IMG/VR virus record: IMGVR_UViG_3300032328_001501
Coordinates: 1 to 25,990 of that record
DNA from: a virus
Lineage: Duplodnaviria; Caudoviricetes
DNA length: 25,990 bases
Reading direction: 5' to 3' (one strand)
The notes beneath the pieces were generated by a model. The model worked only from the letters and a program-made list of their open reading frames with translations, made no database searches and was not told the DNA's origin. Made by a program: the position numbers and the translations under genes. Positions 2,570-15,797 of this stretch are shown piece by piece (position 1 is the stretch's first letter; each line of letters begins with the position of its first letter).

Positions 2570-2575
2570 TTTGGA

Positions 2576-2599
2576 GTTGCGTCAATACAATAGTTATGC
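2576..2599 (+). mobile_element. attI-like or half-attC recombination site at the left end of the cassette array
   Basis: GTTGCGTCAATACAATA-GTTATGC. It has an R-type GTT box at 2593 but no partner inverted arm upstream. Confidence 0.5.
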
Positions 2600-3607
2600 C
2601 CCATGCCAGTGAAGCTCTCCGATTGAACGGAAAATCTCATAAGCAACTTGTGGCACTATGGCGTTTCCTAATCCTTTAAGTCTGTCCACCCGACCGGATA
2701 GCCCATCAGCCACTCTACCCACTGCGGGTTCAGTTTCCCACCAGCTACTGCATTTAGGGGCAAAGAGTTCCGTTCCATCTGTGATTGGCTGCCGTTGTTC
2801 TTTGCATCCTGTGTCGTTGGAGTTGGTAGCATCCTGTAACCGTTCTCCATCGCTACATAATCGTTCAGGTTCCTGCTCCGCTTTTCCGGTGTCTGCCATC
2901 TGTGTCCTTCCCCTGTTCTGAAATCCCTGTTCTGTGGTGTCGGAAAGAATATCACTTGGTTTGCCAGTCCTGCGTTGCTGCTCCCCCCTGCTTTGTTCCT
3001 CAGTCGAACCGTTCCCGTTTCTGTTATGTAAAGTTTGTCCGTTTTCTTTTTGCTCATCTTGCCATCTGATGCTGTTGGAGTAAGCCACAATCCATACTCT
3101 ATCTCTGCGATGCCAAGCGTTTTTACTGCAAGCTGGAATAATATACGTTTCTGTGGTGTAGTTCTGTGCTTCCAAGTCAGATAGCACCGTGTCGAGTGCC
3201 ATTCCGATGATGCCAGTAACATTTTCCCCAACAACAAACTTTGGTTGCACCTCTCCGATAACTCTAAGCATTTCAGCCCAGAGGTAACGGTCATCTTCTT
3301 TGCCTTTTCGCTGCCCGGCAACGCTAAATGGTTGGCAGGGAAATCCTCCTGAAATAACATCAATTGTTCCATTGTATTCTTTTGCGTTAAATTCTTTAAT
3401 GTCTTCAAATCGTTTTGTATTCGGGAAATTCTTTGCTAATACTTTTCTACACCATTCGTCTTTTTCGCATTGAAAAATATTATTCCATCCCATCCATTGT
3501 GCAGCCAAATCAAAACCACCAATGCCCGAAAAAAGTGAGCCGTGTGAAAGGCACGAGGACATAACATCTGCTTTGTGCAAGTGGGGGTTCAGTGGTGTAT
3601 TGAGCAT
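2594..3607 (-). CDS. DNA (cytosine-5) methyltransferase, alpha-like chain (motifs I-VIII and X)
   Basis: SLFSGIGG (I), GGFPCQPFS (IV), ENV (VI), RDRVWIV (VIII), RLKGLGNAIVP (X); no motif IX in this frame. Start uncertain: TTG 3622, ATG 3607 or ATG 3562. Confidence 0.92.
   Translation of the reverse strand: MLNTPLNPHLHKADVMSSCLSHGSLFSGIGGFDLAAQWMGWNNIFQCEKDEWCRKVLAKNFPNTKRFEDIKEFNAKEYNGTIDVISGGFPCQPFSVAGQRKGKEDDRYLWAEMLRVIGEVQPKFVVGENVTGIIGMALDTVLSDLEAQNYTTETYIIPACSKNAWHRRDRVWIVAYSNSIRWQDEQKENGQTLHNRNGNGSTEEQSRGEQQRRTGKPSDILSDTTEQGFQNRGRTQMADTGKAEQEPERLCSDGERLQDATNSNDTGCKEQRQPITDGTELFAPKCSSWWETEPAVGRVADGLSGRVDRLKGLGNAIVPQVAYEIFRSIGELHWHGA
2668..3408 (-). CDS. Overlapping alternative-frame beta-like chain of the C5 methyltransferase (motif IX)
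   Basis: 246-codon ORF nested in the MTase gene on the same strand. It ends KLNPQWVEWLMGYPVGWTD (motif IX-like) and has three repeated [WFL]xPTPxxxD segments. Start may be ATG 3372. Confidence 0.75.
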   Translation of the reverse strand: MKTLKNLTQKNTMEQLMLFQEDFPANHLALPGSEKAKKMTVTSGLKCLELSERCNQSLLLGKMLLASSEWHSTRCYLTWKHRTTPQKRILFQLAVKTLGIAEIEYGLWLTPTASDGKMSKKKTDKLYITETGTVRLRNKAGGSSNAGLANQVIFFPTPQNRDFRTGEGHRWQTPEKRSRNLNDYVAMENGYRMLPTPTTQDAKNNGSQSQMERNSLPLNAVAGGKLNPQWVEWLMGYPVGWTDLKD

Positions 3608-3691
3608 TTGTATTTCTATCAATCATTTGTACTTAATTTAAAGTTTAGTGCTTCTAATCCCTTGCCTTCGCAAAGCCGTTGAACGTTAGCT
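3559..3691 (+). mobile_element. attC-like site 1 (133 bp)
   Basis: ACATAAC ... GTTAGCT end boxes; imperfect inverted arms GCTTTGTGCAAGTGGGG (3570-3586) and CCCTTGCCTTCGCAAAGC (3659-3676); internal similarity to site 2. Confidence 0.78.
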
Positions 3692-4027
3692 GCCATTTGC
3701 AGACGACAATACATATCTCGGCATTAGTTCCCCTTGATGCTTTTCAATACCCTTAAACACAAGTTTTTTATTTTCAATTAGCGGACATATTATTTCGTGC
3801 CTAACAAGGCAATCAGCATACATAAACATTCCACATTCAGGTAAAAACCAAACGCTATTAAACATTCCTTGTGGTTTGTAAAATTCATCTTCTAAAGACA
3901 ATTCGTGTTCTATTGCCTCAATAAGTTTTCGTTGGCTTAAATCTATTGAATACTTAAAAGTTTTACCACCAACACCAGATGACCTGTGTAAGCCATCGTT
4001 AAATCCGTTTAATAAATTGTTTTCCAT
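3686..4027 (-). CDS. Hypothetical protein, cassette 2 cargo
   Basis: 113 aa AT-rich ORF; the stop TAA is the complement of the TTA in the GTTAGCT box. Confidence 0.75.
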   Translation of the reverse strand: MENNLLNGFNDGLHRSSGVGGKTFKYSIDLSQRKLIEAIEHELSLEDEFYKPQGMFNSVWFLPECGMFMYADCLVRHEIICPLIENKKLVFKGIEKHQGELMPRYVLSSANGS

Positions 4028-4091
4028 TTTGTCAGTTTATAAGTTTACTTTTTTAATTAATTTGTCAGGTTATGGGCTGACGAAAAACGGC

Positions 4092-4219
4092 AGCTAACAA
4101 TATATTGGCAAAAGGCGGTCAGACGTGATACTATCAACATCAGTGGCTCATCCATCATTTGTGCTACTATCAACAGTAGTGCTACAAATCCCGCCCTTCG
4201 CCAATACAAAAAGTTATAA
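4092..4219 (+). mobile_element. attC-like site 2 (128 bp)
   Basis: AGCTAAC ... GTTATAA end boxes; arms TATTGGCAAAAGGCGG (4103-4118) and CCGCCCTTCGCCAATA (4191-4206) are complementary at 14 of 16 positions. Confidence 0.82.
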
Positions 4220-4225
4220 GCCATT

Positions 4226-4510
4226 TTAGAACAACGACCCGTTATCAAAAATCACAGGCAGACGATACCCTTCAAATCTAAAATCAAGTGAAACAAACTT
4301 TGGACTTTTACAACCAAACCATTTCCACCACAATTTTTTATACCAAGCACTTTTTGATAACAAACTTTTATACGTTTGTTCTAAATGTTTTGCCTGTTGC
4401 ATATTTCTTGAAACGATTATGCAATTAGGTCTTTTGATAGCCGACTGTAAAATCCAAGTTGTGTTTCCAGTTGCTCTTGTTGTTCTGATGATTTCTTCTA
4501 ATCTTGTCAT
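4226..4510 (-). CDS. Hypothetical protein, cassette 3 cargo (weak P-loop-like N-terminus RATGNTT)
   Basis: 94 aa AT-rich ORF between attC-like sites 2 and 3. Confidence 0.7.
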   Translation of the reverse strand: MTRLEEIIRTTRATGNTTWILQSAIKRPNCIIVSRNMQQAKHLEQTYKSLLSKSAWYKKLWWKWFGCKSPKFVSLDFRFEGYRLPVIFDNGSLF

Positions 4511-4554
4511 TGCTTTTAAATTAAATTGTTAAGCCAAACACGAATAAAAACGGC

Positions 4555-4582
4555 TTATAACAGTGGTTTGGCAAAAAGCCCC
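4555..4582 (+). mobile_element. Truncated attC-like site 3 (left half only)
   Basis: TTATAAC-AGTG-GTTTGGCAAAAAGCC resembles the left arm of site 2; no right arm found downstream. Confidence 0.65.
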
Positions 4583-4710
4583 ATCAGGGCAATGGCAGCG
4601 TGGTTTATTCTAATGACCCCTGAAGCACCAAAAGAAATTTTCGGTAATTTTTTGGACGTGTTGCCGCTTTGCTTTGGCAAGGTGGCGTTGTCGAAGATGT
4701 GGAGGTTCAT
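4555..4710 (-). pseudogene. Probable truncated phage gene (MNLHIFD...ALMGL) running into attC-like site 3
   Basis: The last residues (FAKPLL*) are encoded by the attC arm and the stop lies in the TTATAAC box. The ORF can be extended upstream to ATG 4836. Confidence 0.45.
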
Positions 4711-4864
4711 AGTGGTGTTTATTTGAGGTGAAAAAATGCTGCCAACTTTTGGCGCTTCAGACAGCCATCGTAGATAACGTTGGTGTTCGTTTTCTACGGA
4801 TGGTTTTTTCTGAGCGAGATCAAGTAGGGTTAACATGGGCTGGCTGGTGTTTTTATTTTGAGAA

Positions 4865-5038
4865 TTACTTCCCCTTAAACCGCTTCGCCTTAACCCATTT
4901 CTGCCGGCCTGTTTGTTGAAGCCATTGGCCGTAATCTTTTGGCTTTAAGCAGGTGTCAGTTCGCACAAATTTTGCATCGGCGGTGCTTTGAGCGCCCATC
5001 ATAGACGCAATTGCTGCTAATTCTCCTATGTTTTTCAT
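4865..5038 (-). CDS. Small hypothetical protein (57 aa)
   Basis: Manual translation MKNIGELAAIASMMG...KRFKGK*; fits the operon gap. Confidence 0.6.
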   Translation of the reverse strand: MKNIGELAAIASMMGAQSTADAKFVRTDTCLKPKDYGQWLQQTGRQKWVKAKRFKGK

Positions 5039-5058: not shown

Positions 5059-5424
5059 TTAAAAAGGTATATCACCGCCACTGGTCGGTGCCGGCTGCAT
5101 GCCTGCGCTCGGTGGGAATTGCGGCGCCTGCTGCTGATCATTGAAAACAAACTCTTTGGCGCCACCGCAGTACTCCTTCGGCTGCCCCTTTTGGTCCTTG
5201 CCCTGCGCCAGAGAAATGGTGTGGGTTTCACCGATTGGGCTGACGGCCCTGCGCTGGGCAATGGCTACCTTCAGCTCCGTGGTATTCTTTGTCGGGTGCT
5301 GGTAAATGTGTGGCCCCTGTAGTGCGCTGAGGTTTACCCAGCGTTGGCCAGTTTTCTGATTTACGATGATGTGGCCCTTAAAGGCTTCATCGAGAATGAT
5401 GTTTGCGTTTAGAATGCTTGACAT
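5059..5424 (-). CDS. Putative single-stranded DNA-binding protein
   Basis: 121 aa with a Q/P-rich flexible tail ending DIPF; located next to the exonuclease and annealase genes. Confidence 0.65.
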   Translation of the reverse strand: MSSILNANIILDEAFKGHIIVNQKTGQRWVNLSALQGPHIYQHPTKNTTELKVAIAQRRAVSPIGETHTISLAQGKDQKGQPKEYCGGAKEFVFNDQQQAPQFPPSAGMQPAPTSGGDIPF

Positions 5425-8162: not shown

Positions 8163-8341
8163 GTGCACCGGCATATTTATATCCTTCGGTGCGCACGGAT
8201 GCGCTTAACGGCTGATGTTACGAAACCAGTCGTCTAGTTTTTTTTGCCTGAATATGGCCAGCATTAGCGTGGCAGGGAAAAAGACAATGGCTGTTATTAT
8301 GGCTTTTATTATCATATGTGAATGGTGGCGCAAGGCCTTTG

Positions 8342-8413
8342 CATGCAAGGGCGGATTCGAACCGCCACCTTTTGACTGATGTCAAATGCTCTCCCGTGTT
8401 AAGCTACTTACAA
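8342..8413 (-). tRNA. tRNA-like element or pseudo-tRNA, no assignable anticodon
   Basis: Acceptor TTGTAAG/CTTGCAT, TA, D arm GCTT..GAGC, stem TTTGA/TCAAA with a 6-nt loop CATCAG, T arm GGCGG-TTCGAAT-CCGCC; no CCA. Confidence 0.65.
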
Positions 8414-9620: not shown

Positions 9621-10573
9621 TATACTATTGGTTTTATTTGATATACTCGTTTTACTTTGTCGCCCAACCTTACACATTTTGATTTGCCAAAAAATTCGCC
9701 CAGAGCTACGGTAATATGGTAGCGACTGAGGCCGTCTCCGCAATACCTTATGGCATCGGTACTGGTCATGTAGTGGGTTTCGCTTTTTTCGAAAAGCTGC
9801 AATACTGTTTGCCGGGCTGGTAGCAGCAGGGGGTTGTTGCCCATTAAAGCAAGCCGTGCTGCTATGCGGTTTTGCCTTGCTCCTATAATGTAACTGCGAA
9901 GGGTGCGACCTACTTCGCTGCGCTGGAACATGCATATCTCTTTAGCCATGTCAAGTGTGAGGTAGTAATCGGCAAGTGGAAGCCTGTCGCTGCCAGCCCT
10001 GCACACCTCCATGTAATCAACATCATTTATATATCCGATAGAAAAAACGCTTTTGAGCCAGTCTTTGATTTCGCGCTGAATGCCAAGGGCGGTGTGCAGC
10101 GCCCGTGCGCTTATAACCTGCATTGATTTGTAATCGATGATCTCAATGGTTGGTGTAGGCTTTTCTACTTCTTTAACCACTGGCCTGCTTTCTACTTCTG
10201 AAAAATACCTCCTGATGGTTTCCCCGGCTTCGGTGCGAGCCATCATGGCCAGGCGTTTTGCAAAGGAGAGGGAGAGGAGGTAGTCGGTGGTGGGTCGGCC
10301 ACCTTTCGAAGCGGGGAGGGGGTTTTCGTCATGTTGACGAGAACCTGTTTGGGGGTTTTCGCCCTTAGGGTGAGAACCTGTTTGGGGCTTTTCACCCTTA
10401 GTGCGAACTTCTACCCAGTCCTCATTTTCGAAAGCCCATTTGGCGTTTACAATATTTACCCTTGCCCATTTCGCATAGTGGGCCTTATTATACCCCAAGC
10501 CTTTATGCAGCGCAATAGCGCTTACCGCCCTTTGTCCGTTGTCTTTTTTTACTATTTGTGGTAACATGGTCAT
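9620..10573 (-). CDS. Phage antirepressor with two tandem AntA/AntB-like domains
   Basis: VSAIALHKGLG...DYLLSLSFAKRLAM...GETIRRYF and ISARALHTALG...DYYLTLDMAKEICM...GRTLRSYI. Confidence 0.88.
   Translation of the reverse strand: MTMLPQIVKKDNGQRAVSAIALHKGLGYNKAHYAKWARVNIVNAKWAFENEDWVEVRTKGEKPQTGSHPKGENPQTGSRQHDENPLPASKGGRPTTDYLLSLSFAKRLAMMARTEAGETIRRYFSEVESRPVVKEVEKPTPTIEIIDYKSMQVISARALHTALGIQREIKDWLKSVFSIGYINDVDYMEVCRAGSDRLPLADYYLTLDMAKEICMFQRSEVGRTLRSYIIGARQNRIAARLALMGNNPLLLPARQTVLQLFEKSETHYMTSTDAIRYCGDGLSRYHITVALGEFFGKSKCVRLGDKVKRVYQIKPIV
10339..10404. repeat. In-frame 33-bp tandem duplication in the antirepressor
   Basis: GAGAACCTGTTTGGGGGTTTTCGCCCTTAGGGT / GAGAACCTGTTTGGGGCTTTTCACCCTTAGTGC, encoding KGE[KN]PQTGS twice. 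Confidence 0.85.
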
Positions 10574-11301: not shown

Positions 11302-11652
11302 ATGAAAACACTCGTATTGATTGCAGCGTTAGCGCTGACTGGCTGCGCTTCGCAGCAGAAGGTGGCAGAAAGCCTGAAAGGCACAGACATTGCCGAGATT
11401 GTGCGCCAGTACGGCCCGCCCACCAGCAAAACAGACGACGCCAACGGGGGCGAGATATACACCTATGCTTCTCAGGGCAGCAACCCTTTTACGGGGCAGG
11501 CCATGATGGTGTACGAGCACATTTATGTTGGCCCCGACCGCAAGGTTTACCACTACATGAAAAACAGTGAAAACGTGGCACCTACCCAGGTGCAACAAGT
11601 AAAGCCATACAAAGCTCCGCCAGTTAGTACCGCCACTGGATACGGCAACTAG
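11302..11652 (+). CDS. Lipoprotein co-transcribed with the repressor
   Basis: Signal peptide MKTLVLIAALALTG-C with lipobox; YGPP motif. Confidence 0.8.
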   Translation: MKTLVLIAALALTGCASQQKVAESLKGTDIAEIVRQYGPPTSKTDDANGGEIYTYASQGSNPFTGQAMMVYEHIYVGPDRKVYHYMKNSENVAPTQVQQVKPYKAPPVSTATGYGN

Positions 11653-12698
11653 CCCCACTTCTCCATTTCTTTGTCCACCCTTTGGTTTATGATTTTGTAG
11701 TAAATCATGGTGGTGCGCAGGTCGCTATGCCCCAGCAACTTGCTTGCCACTTCTGCACTGATGCCAAAATTGGCGCACTGCACCGCAAACGTATGCCGCC
11801 CGGTATGAAAGGTTAGCGGTTTATCAATGCCGCACACATGGGCAATAGCCTTTAGGTATTGGTTGCATTTTTGGTTACTGAATACCGGCACCGCTGGCCA
11901 CGTGTTGATCAGGTTTTGAATGCGCTCGTTCACTTTGATGCTTACCACTTCGCCCGTCTTGGTGGTGTAGAGTATCAATCGGCCTTCTTGTATTTGCTTG
12001 CCAAAGTCTAATGCCGCCACGTCGCTGTACCTCAGCCCGGTGTAGCAGCTGAACAAAAACCACTTGGCCACGTGCATCAGGGTGGGCGCATTTTCCATGG
12101 CCGCAACGGCCGCTATTTCATCCATCGTAAGCCAGGTGCGCTGCGGGTTGAGCTTGGCCGGTTTGGTGTAGATATCGAAAGGGTTGGTGCTGATCTGCTG
12201 GTGCTTGACTGCATCGTGCATTACTGCACTCACAAACGACACGCGTTTTAAAACGCCTGGTCCATTGCAGCCATCCTGCCTGCACCAGTCTTCGTAATTT
12301 AGCAACCATGCCGGGGTTAGCTTATCCAGCGTTACCAGCTCGTCAAACCGAAGTACTTGCCGCAGCATGGATTGATAAGCCCGCATGGTGTTGCGGCTCT
12401 TGGTGCGCTCCCATCTGCCCATGCACTCAATTGCATACCGCTTGAACGTTATGGCGCTGCTGAGTGCCTCGGGTGCCGCTGTTGCCGCTTGCACCAACTT
12501 CAGCGCCAGCATCTTGTTTATCTGTGCCGCCTGTGGATGGCTGGGTTTTACTTTCTGCTTATCCCGGTCCCACTGTTCAGGTTTTAGCTTGATGCCCAAC
12601 GCCTCAAAGCGCCGGGTGGATTTGTCGCGGTAAACGATGCGCAAAAGGCATAGGCCGCTTTTGTCGGGCCGGTTCCGCAGCTCGTAGCTTATTGTCAT
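11649..12698 (-). CDS. int: Tyrosine integrase (Bacteroidota type with N-terminal arm-binding domain)
   Basis: TGLRYSD, KT, FHTGRHTF, LLGHSDLRTTMIY catalytic motifs. Confidence 0.96.
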   Translation of the reverse strand: MTISYELRNRPDKSGLCLLRIVYRDKSTRRFEALGIKLKPEQWDRDKQKVKPSHPQAAQINKMLALKLVQAATAAPEALSSAITFKRYAIECMGRWERTKSRNTMRAYQSMLRQVLRFDELVTLDKLTPAWLLNYEDWCRQDGCNGPGVLKRVSFVSAVMHDAVKHQQISTNPFDIYTKPAKLNPQRTWLTMDEIAAVAAMENAPTLMHVAKWFLFSCYTGLRYSDVAALDFGKQIQEGRLILYTTKTGEVVSIKVNERIQNLINTWPAVPVFSNQKCNQYLKAIAHVCGIDKPLTFHTGRHTFAVQCANFGISAEVASKLLGHSDLRTTMIYYKIINQRVDKEMEKWG

Positions 12699-15495: not shown

Positions 15496-15797
15496 GTTAC
15501 ATGGTTGTTACATACTTTTTTTGGCTGTAACCCTTGCAAATGCTCAATTGTTACAACTGTTACAGACTTTTAGCCCCTATAATCACATAGAGGATAAAAA
15601 TTATATATTTTCATTTTCAAAAATTATTGAGGTATAATACCTTGCATTACATAGTACTATAAGTCGTTTTCTTTTCAAAATGAAAACATATTATATTTTC
15701 CATACAAGCTTTAAAAGGGGAAAAAAGTCTGTAACATTGTAACAATTGAGCATTTGCAAGGGTTACAGCGTTTTGAAGTCTGTAACAACCATGTAAC
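15496..15797. repeat. Long inverted repeat with TGTAAC iterons around an AT-rich core; candidate replication origin
   Basis: Arms 15496-15571 and 15723-15797; perfect 33-bp core 15524-15556 / 15737-15769; inner IR 15608-15622 / 15672-15686. Confidence 0.8.

Follow-up and report, generated by a model that had tools for sequence, protein, structure and literature searches.

Clusters of attC sites with methylase cassettes are already published for phages. According to the available part of Qi et al. 2023 (PMC9892861), 17 CALINs were found in 10,705 phages and were treated as captured parts of bacterial integrons; the CALIN of the Polaribacter phage P12002L carries methylase cassettes. Five of the six phage sites assayed were recombined with IntI1, whereas P12002L_attC1 was not.

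The window, i.e., the whole stretch of DNA analysed (25,990 nucleotides), is an entire 26-kb viral contig, approximately 48% complete, with genes for a helicase, a C5 methylase, an antirepressor, an arm-binding integrase and RadC, together with virion genes. The site family, together with a homologue in the Flavobacterium phage fF4, points to a probable host among the Bacteroidota. The array in it is real: it consists of a docking-site-like head, three cassettes, two sites of 128-133 bp and a truncated third site. It is best explained as a recombinase-less three-cassette array of a widespread integron-like family of the Bacteroidota, which would be loaded in trans by a compact Xer-type recombinase lacking the I2 insertion (probability about 0.7). 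The features are as follows.

2573-2599, plus strand: attI-like head with the crossover G|TT at 2593/2594 (head-motif matrices; near-identical head in L014).
2594-3685, plus strand: cassette 1, the methylase gene and site A, by the top-strand definition (left boundary common to L343, L345, L346 and L347).
2594-3562, minus strand: C5 cytosine DNA methyltransferase of 322 aa (Pfam PF00145, E 1.5e-44; PHROG 363).
3559-3691, plus strand: site A, an attC-like chimera of 133 bp that folds weakly (fold z; family HMM 88.8 bits, a score to which site A itself contributes as a member of the seed alignment).
3686-4213, plus strand: cassette 2, a 113-aa gene (3686-4027, minus strand) and site B (homology boundaries in relatives).
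4092-4219, plus strand: site B, attC-like, 128 bp, whose minus strand folds best (predicted folding).
4214-4582, plus strand: cassette 3, a 94-aa gene (4226-4510, minus strand) and the truncated site (recurrence in L004 and L005).
4555-4582, plus strand: truncated distal site, an R box and about 21 bases of the left arm (agrees with the L005 site for about 21 bases and then diverges).

The original prediction described three AT-rich units separated by palindromic sites, and all of its boxes were found at the predicted positions: GTTATGC at 2593-2599, ACATAAC at 3559-3565, GTTAGCT at 3685-3691, AGCTAAC at 4092-4098, GTTATAA at 4213-4219 and TTATAAC at 4555-4561, with the two full sites measuring 133 and 128 bp. 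Sites A and B are co-oriented and have boxes of the RYYYAAC...GTTRRRY type, in which TAAC and GTTA are conserved and RYYY and RRRY only loosely so. The AT-richness applies to units 2 and 3 (GC content of 36% and 34%), but not to unit 1 (45%, versus 49% in the rest). Site B folds well, whereas site A folds no better than shuffled sequences and the third site is truncated. The two ends of each unit had also been described as complementary to each other. This is the case for units 2 (13/16) and 3 (14/16, ungapped) but only weakly so for unit 1, where 9/16 positions pair without gaps and 5/11 beyond GTT, with 6/7 in the R box. Beyond GTT, the own-end match is 10/11 for unit 2 and for unit 3, against 4-7/11 in cross pairs. 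Only 11 of the 11,478 GTT/AAC pairs lying 200-1500 bp apart in the window reach at least 9/11: units 2 and 3, seven pairs within one unrelated inverted repeat at the 15.5-kb position, and two others.

The predicted cassettes, 2594-3685, 3686-4213 and 4214 to about 4582, were borne out, because their plus-strand G|TT bounds recur in other phages. Given the 6/7 match in the R box of unit 1 and the truncation of the third site, cassette 2 alone still seems fit for excision. Two features had escaped the original prediction: the left end is a docking-site-like head, and the genes are reversed with respect to integron cassettes. All three cassette genes are on the bottom (minus) strand, co-directional with the phage operon.

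The heads of the family are conserved and AT-rich, have the consensus TATATATAATAG|TTA, and lie at a median of 51 bases from the start codon of the recombinase. Two matrices were built, one from 51 recombinase-adjacent heads and one from 122 array heads, with the window site in neither. The G|TT at 2593 scored 10.4 and 13.5 bits, respectively, and ranked first among the 461 GTT[AG] positions of the window under both. The head at 2593 is thus attI-like, as far as its position and motif indicate.

Several other features of the window should be mentioned. A 15-bp near-palindrome, GTCAAACGGTTTGAC or a one-base variant of it, occurs in five copies (816, 6888, 15095, 17490 and 25279) and is likely to be an operator or promoter element. 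An inverted repeat of 61 bp with 89% complementarity (15496-15556 and 15737-15797) lies in an AT-rich gap between divergent genes. A tandem pair of 33-bp copies, each with an internal hairpin, is located at 10318-10383. The only Rfam match in the window was tRNA-like; a tRNA-like gene with an unreadable anticodon loop is on the minus strand at 8341-8413. Promoter and terminator matches in the window were at chance level (8 versus 4.8 +/- 2.2, and 3 versus 2.7). The search for metagenome homologues of the ORF at 5059-5424 returned nothing.

In cassette 1, the ATG of the methylase gene is inside the right R box, and the left box supplies the TAA of its stop codon. Four of the 23 methylase relatives (L343, L345, L346 and L347) are cassettes that share the left boundary, each beside a different neighbour; in L347 the cassette lies directly behind a head similar to that of the window. 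Around the distant relatives among these 23, no cassette boxes were seen, which suggests that the cassette was derived from a phage gene. The folding of site A gave z values of +1.4/+1.6 in the linear form and -1.0 in the circular form. In 5 of 8 runs, homologues of the methylase continue into a different site body from 3566-3568 onward, and bases 3600-3678 match a site with a different left arm, with 1-2 differences, in 6 of 8 runs. By these comparisons, site A is a chimera.

In cassette 2, homology begins at 3684 in three of six relatives (L006, L008 and L010) and extends through site B to 4206 in three of six (L006, L009 and L010); in the remaining ones it ends at 3579-3705 on the left and at 4054-4224 on the right. 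Neither Pfam nor PHROG-type searches gave a function or a name for the 113-aa protein. The predicted minus-strand fold of site B has a z value of -5.45. Folding of the circularised junctions had been proposed as a check. For site B the circularised form is better than the linear one (-33.7 versus -26.0 kcal/mol; top strand, -25.8 kcal/mol), whereas for site A it is no better than shuffles. No real match of site B was found in cultured phages. The seven bases before the G|TT of site B (4206-4213) are entirely unlike those of the near-identical L006, L009 and L180 and resemble the head of the window. In the family, the spacer before the 3' G|TT is conserved at 74%, against 92% for the opposite spacer and 93-94% for the arms (303 non-independent pairs of related sites). 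A comparison over 95 heads (p 0.29) led to rejection of the idea that an array's head is the template for the spacer of its sites.

In cassette 3, identity with L004 and L005 is 96.7% over 4215-4576, with different DNA on both sides. The encoded protein belongs to a phage protein family that has no Pfam name, and no function was found for it; the setting of its homologue in the Flavobacterium phage fF4 is not cassette-like. The last codons of the upstream phage ORF 4555-4836 also lie in the truncated distal site, and there is no fold beyond the truncation. Two homologue searches with this ORF returned only the ORF itself, the relatives of which are, we presume, longer than it is; a contig of 44.6 kb carries this ORF as well.

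The original prediction that the phage lineage acquired or shuffled the units is supported: all three recur in other phages with new neighbours and the same G|TT start. In 12 pairs of shared cassettes, the upstream flanks were at background level in all 12, and the arm of the 3' site was kept in eight. This means that the right-hand site travels with its gene, as had been proposed. The related phages vary at G|TT at the unit boundaries, but some changes, such as those in site A, are elsewhere. The chimeric site A and the site bodies swapped in 4 of the 12 shared cassettes indicate that other recombination acts too. Eight runs, all of contigs, which cannot show absence, contained no circle joint or excised form. 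An integron-like system of Bacteroidota phages probably mobilised the three units of the window.

Alternatively, illegitimate or homologous recombination might have brought in the head and the three cassettes together from another phage, as a single block that is now inert. Such an import is tentatively suggested by the distal site, which breaks off after some 21 bases and is joined to a phage ORF, by the chimeric nature of site A, and by two helicase relatives (54-55% identity), neither of which has such sites within 6 kb; the search for a close relative with an empty head was negative. Among phage arrays, however, heads with this motif generally stand without an enzyme: 48 of 51 have none within 1.5 kb and three have one. 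The methylase cassette behind a similar head in L347 also speaks against it. We regard the block import as possible, at somewhat less than even odds, and it is compatible with the best explanation for the family.

Sites of this kind are common. The site pattern occurred in 129 stretches from 6 of 64 parts of GTDB, from which approximately 1,300 are estimated, and in 122 viral stretches from 29 of 64 parts, from which approximately 270 are estimated. The Bacteroidota are named in 73 of the 78 loci among those listed for GTDB. The expectation that the sites would occur in Bacteroidota arrays beside an integron-like integrase holds for the arrays and for an adjoining tyrosine recombinase, but this enzyme is not IntI. 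The family HMM gave 522 refined sites (90 of 612 matches could not be refined and were left out), and mixed orientation was found in none of the 102 multi-site loci.

The signature of excision is seen throughout the family: over 66 host and 123 phage units, the own ends of a unit match at 6.7-6.8/10 positions, whereas the linear site reaches 3.9-4.0/10. For 116 of the 123 phage units, and for 51 of the 66 from hosts, folding is predicted to be better on the bottom strand than on the top strand. The pairing of the ends extends over approximately 14 bases, with a G-T pair of the bottom strand at position 8 in 364 of 391 phage units and 85 of 93 host units, all of which were chosen for an end match of 8/10 and not for the wobble. 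In the minimum-energy folds, a one-sided bulge of 3-4 bases is beside the crossover in 341 of 482 sites.

The host and phage units differ in the strand of their genes. Of 123 phage units, 120 carry their longest ORF on the bottom strand, whereas 59 of 66 host units carry it on the top strand; the corresponding figures in a second set of units are 379 of 391 and 78 of 94. The search window for bottom-strand ORFs included the site, a small bias that cannot explain this contrast. Two exceptions in orientation were observed: L042, a genome locus with bottom-strand genes, is possibly a prophage, and L150, a viral locus with a top-strand gene, is possibly a host piece. The cargo differs as well. DNA methylases account for 21 of the 100 proteins scanned from phage cassettes (of 366 ORFs, 148 were drawn at random and the first 100 of these were used; the locus of one of the 21 was fetched by the methylase itself) and for none of 82 host proteins (82 of 89 ORFs, the seven bottom-strand ORFs of L042 being left out). 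The host proteins include ParE, GmrSD, ThsA, DarT and AIPR. At 85% identity, no cassette was common to the 391 viral and 94 host units, a small sample. One phage cassette has a match to Tad8, a Thoeris inhibitor (L345, 2114-2350), and another encodes a Mom-family protein (L275, 5189-5920).

A motif scan of 262 loci revealed ten tyrosine recombinases near the sites. Eight of them were tested; their scores on TIGR02249 were 124-207 bits, split in two pieces, at a cut-off of 265, and the best model was NF040815. The gap between the two catalytic motifs is 53-59 residues, compared with 100 in IntI1, which means that the I2 insertion, as described in the available part of PMC4792948, is absent. The original prediction had called for an IntI-like enzyme; the enzyme linked to the sites lacks the IntI insertion and scores below the integron-integrase cut-off, and many phages encode this compact recombinase themselves. 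The same prediction held that the only recombinase in the window is an arm-binding integrase, and no other was found in the window. This integrase (11649-12698) was rejected as the enzyme of the array, with 43.6 bits on TIGR02249 and a long outgroup branch.

For an independent test, 80 viral loci were fetched by the recombinase alone, and the enzyme was located in 75 of them and not in five. Sites were upstream of the recombinase in all 50 loci having at least 1.5 kb upstream, two of which (L263 and L332) are the contigs that seeded the query. By orientation and side, 282 sites fell into one class and 14, 14 and 8 into the other three, with a false-positive rate of the site detector of approximately 11%. 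In these loci, 112 of 114 clean units are reversed. The locus L335 has seven oppositely oriented sites besides the six usual ones upstream of the recombinase, possibly two arrays. In a tree of 48 proteins, the phage enzymes form a group with one host subgroup (support 96/90), apart from IntI1 and the host Xer-like proteins; the root of this tree is unsure and the phage set was picked by similarity. In the cultured Polaribacter phage Freya (L368; Freya_10, 3790-4962), the recombinase is accompanied by a head and a cassette with a gene starting inside the site. A Chryseobacterium plasmid carries a host form of the enzyme with six detected sites downstream. The link between the site family and the compact recombinase is tight.

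These results bear on a rival reading, in which the array is an ordinary CALIN with canonical attC sites served in trans by a host IntI. The G|TT crossover, the R boxes, the bottom-strand bias and the own-end complementarity are all traits of integrons, the NCBI label of the enzyme family is 'site-specific tyrosine recombinase/integron integrase', and IntI1 did act on most of the phage sites assayed. Nevertheless, none of the ten recombinases in the 262 loci is of IntI length, a one-sided bulge is present in most of the predicted folds, the Bacteroidetes are nearly without complete integrons according to the available part of PMC9024848, and the one site that failed with IntI1, P12002L_attC1, is the assayed site resembling the family of the window (PMC9892861, available part). 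An IntI-served CALIN is therefore improbable. It is about equally improbable that the sites exploit the host XerC/D, as CTX-phi does, with the neighbouring recombinase as an accessory. Most arrays are without an adjacent enzyme, and Xer enzymes lacking I2 can use a folded strand, as stated in the accessible text of PMC4792948; however, all 50 loci with enough upstream sequence have a dedicated enzyme at the head of the array, and in the tree this enzyme is on a branch separate from the host XerC/D-like sequences. That the repeats are expression signals or small dispersed repeats, shuffled by homologous recombination or slippage with no dedicated recombinase, seems very unlikely: site bodies and the 7-base spacer do get exchanged, and the start of 164 of 380 phage cassette ORFs may lie within the site, but homologous exchange would neither maintain complementary variable ends in each unit nor set the boundaries at G|TT, and this reading would not put a recombinase at a fixed distance from the head.

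The preferred explanation is trans-loading by the compact recombinase, and the following mechanism might be proposed. A cassette would be excised as a circle, and the minus (bottom) strand of the circle would fold into a hairpin, whose outer stem of 14 bp would include one G-T pair and which would have a bulge of 3-4 bases on one side. At G|TT, the compact recombinase would link this hairpin either to the double-stranded head or to a different site; replication would then resolve the junction, in the manner of integrons and CTX-phi. As the cassette genes are on the bottom strand, each would be read by the phage's own early/replication operon, which seems to run across the array toward the head; with such read-through, an integron promoter would be unnecessary. 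The methylase would likely shield the phage DNA from host restriction. The enzyme might be supplied in trans from the host chromosome, from a co-infecting phage or from the unsequenced half of the window phage.

In a broader sense, we lean slightly toward the view that Bacteroidota phages run their own integron-like platform, with a recombinase lacking I2, folded cassette strands and a phage-only, reversed pool, derived from phage genes and rich in methylases for counter-defence, beside a separate host pool of defence genes at the same sites, and with enzyme-less arrays loaded in trans. The array in the window is a small, partly decayed, enzyme-less instance of an integron-like system. Such a system would provide a mechanism for phage genome mosaicism, the site-specific shuffling of one-gene cassettes, and would extend the range of integron-like systems to a phylum in which hardly any complete integrons are detected by IntegronFinder (PMC9024848, available part). 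The sites are common to host and phage but, in this sample, the genes are not: defence-type genes on one side and methylases, Mom and Tad8 on the other. An I2-less enzyme acting on hairpins would test the claim, made in the accessible text of PMC4792948, that the reaction needs I2. The compact enzyme might even represent the step before I2 that the evolution of integrons requires, which we consider unlikely. The cultured phages Freya and P12002L make the system testable now.

P12002L (L262) has sites of the window's kind and genes on the bottom strand. Its published 'divergent' attC2 resembles a reversed array's head, and its attC1 resembles a true site of the family (L262, approximately 29180-30070). 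No paper on the compact enzyme or on the reversed phage cassette pool was found in a search that lay outside most subscription journals.

In comparison with known systems, the array shares with integrons the G|TT crossover, the R boxes, the folded bottom strand (predicted), the own-end complementarity, the polar arrays and a tyrosine recombinase beside the docking site. It differs from them in that the enzyme is without I2, the phage genes are on the bottom strand and their expression would come from the phage operon; furthermore, the outer stem is 14 bp long with a conserved G-T pair, and a one-sided bulge is next to the crossover. The system would work like an integron, yet departs from it in two defining points, IntI and the gene strand. 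With the phage CALINs it has in common integrase-less clusters of attC-like sites in phages and DNA methylase cargo, whereas the compact enzyme, the head and the reversed pool are absent from the description in the available part of that paper (PMC9892861). As in the integration of CTX-phi via XerC/D, a folded single strand and a tyrosine recombinase lacking I2 are involved, but there one phage genome enters dif with host enzymes (PMC4792948, available part), and here many one-gene cassettes are handled by a dedicated enzyme. Finally, in attG sites and SALINs, as the accessible portion of the preprint describes them (bioRxiv 10.1101/2022.09.11.507474), cassettes are likewise at double-stranded GTT-type sites away from the integrase gene; in contrast, the heads described here share a conserved motif and gather arrays, and their enzyme is not IntI.
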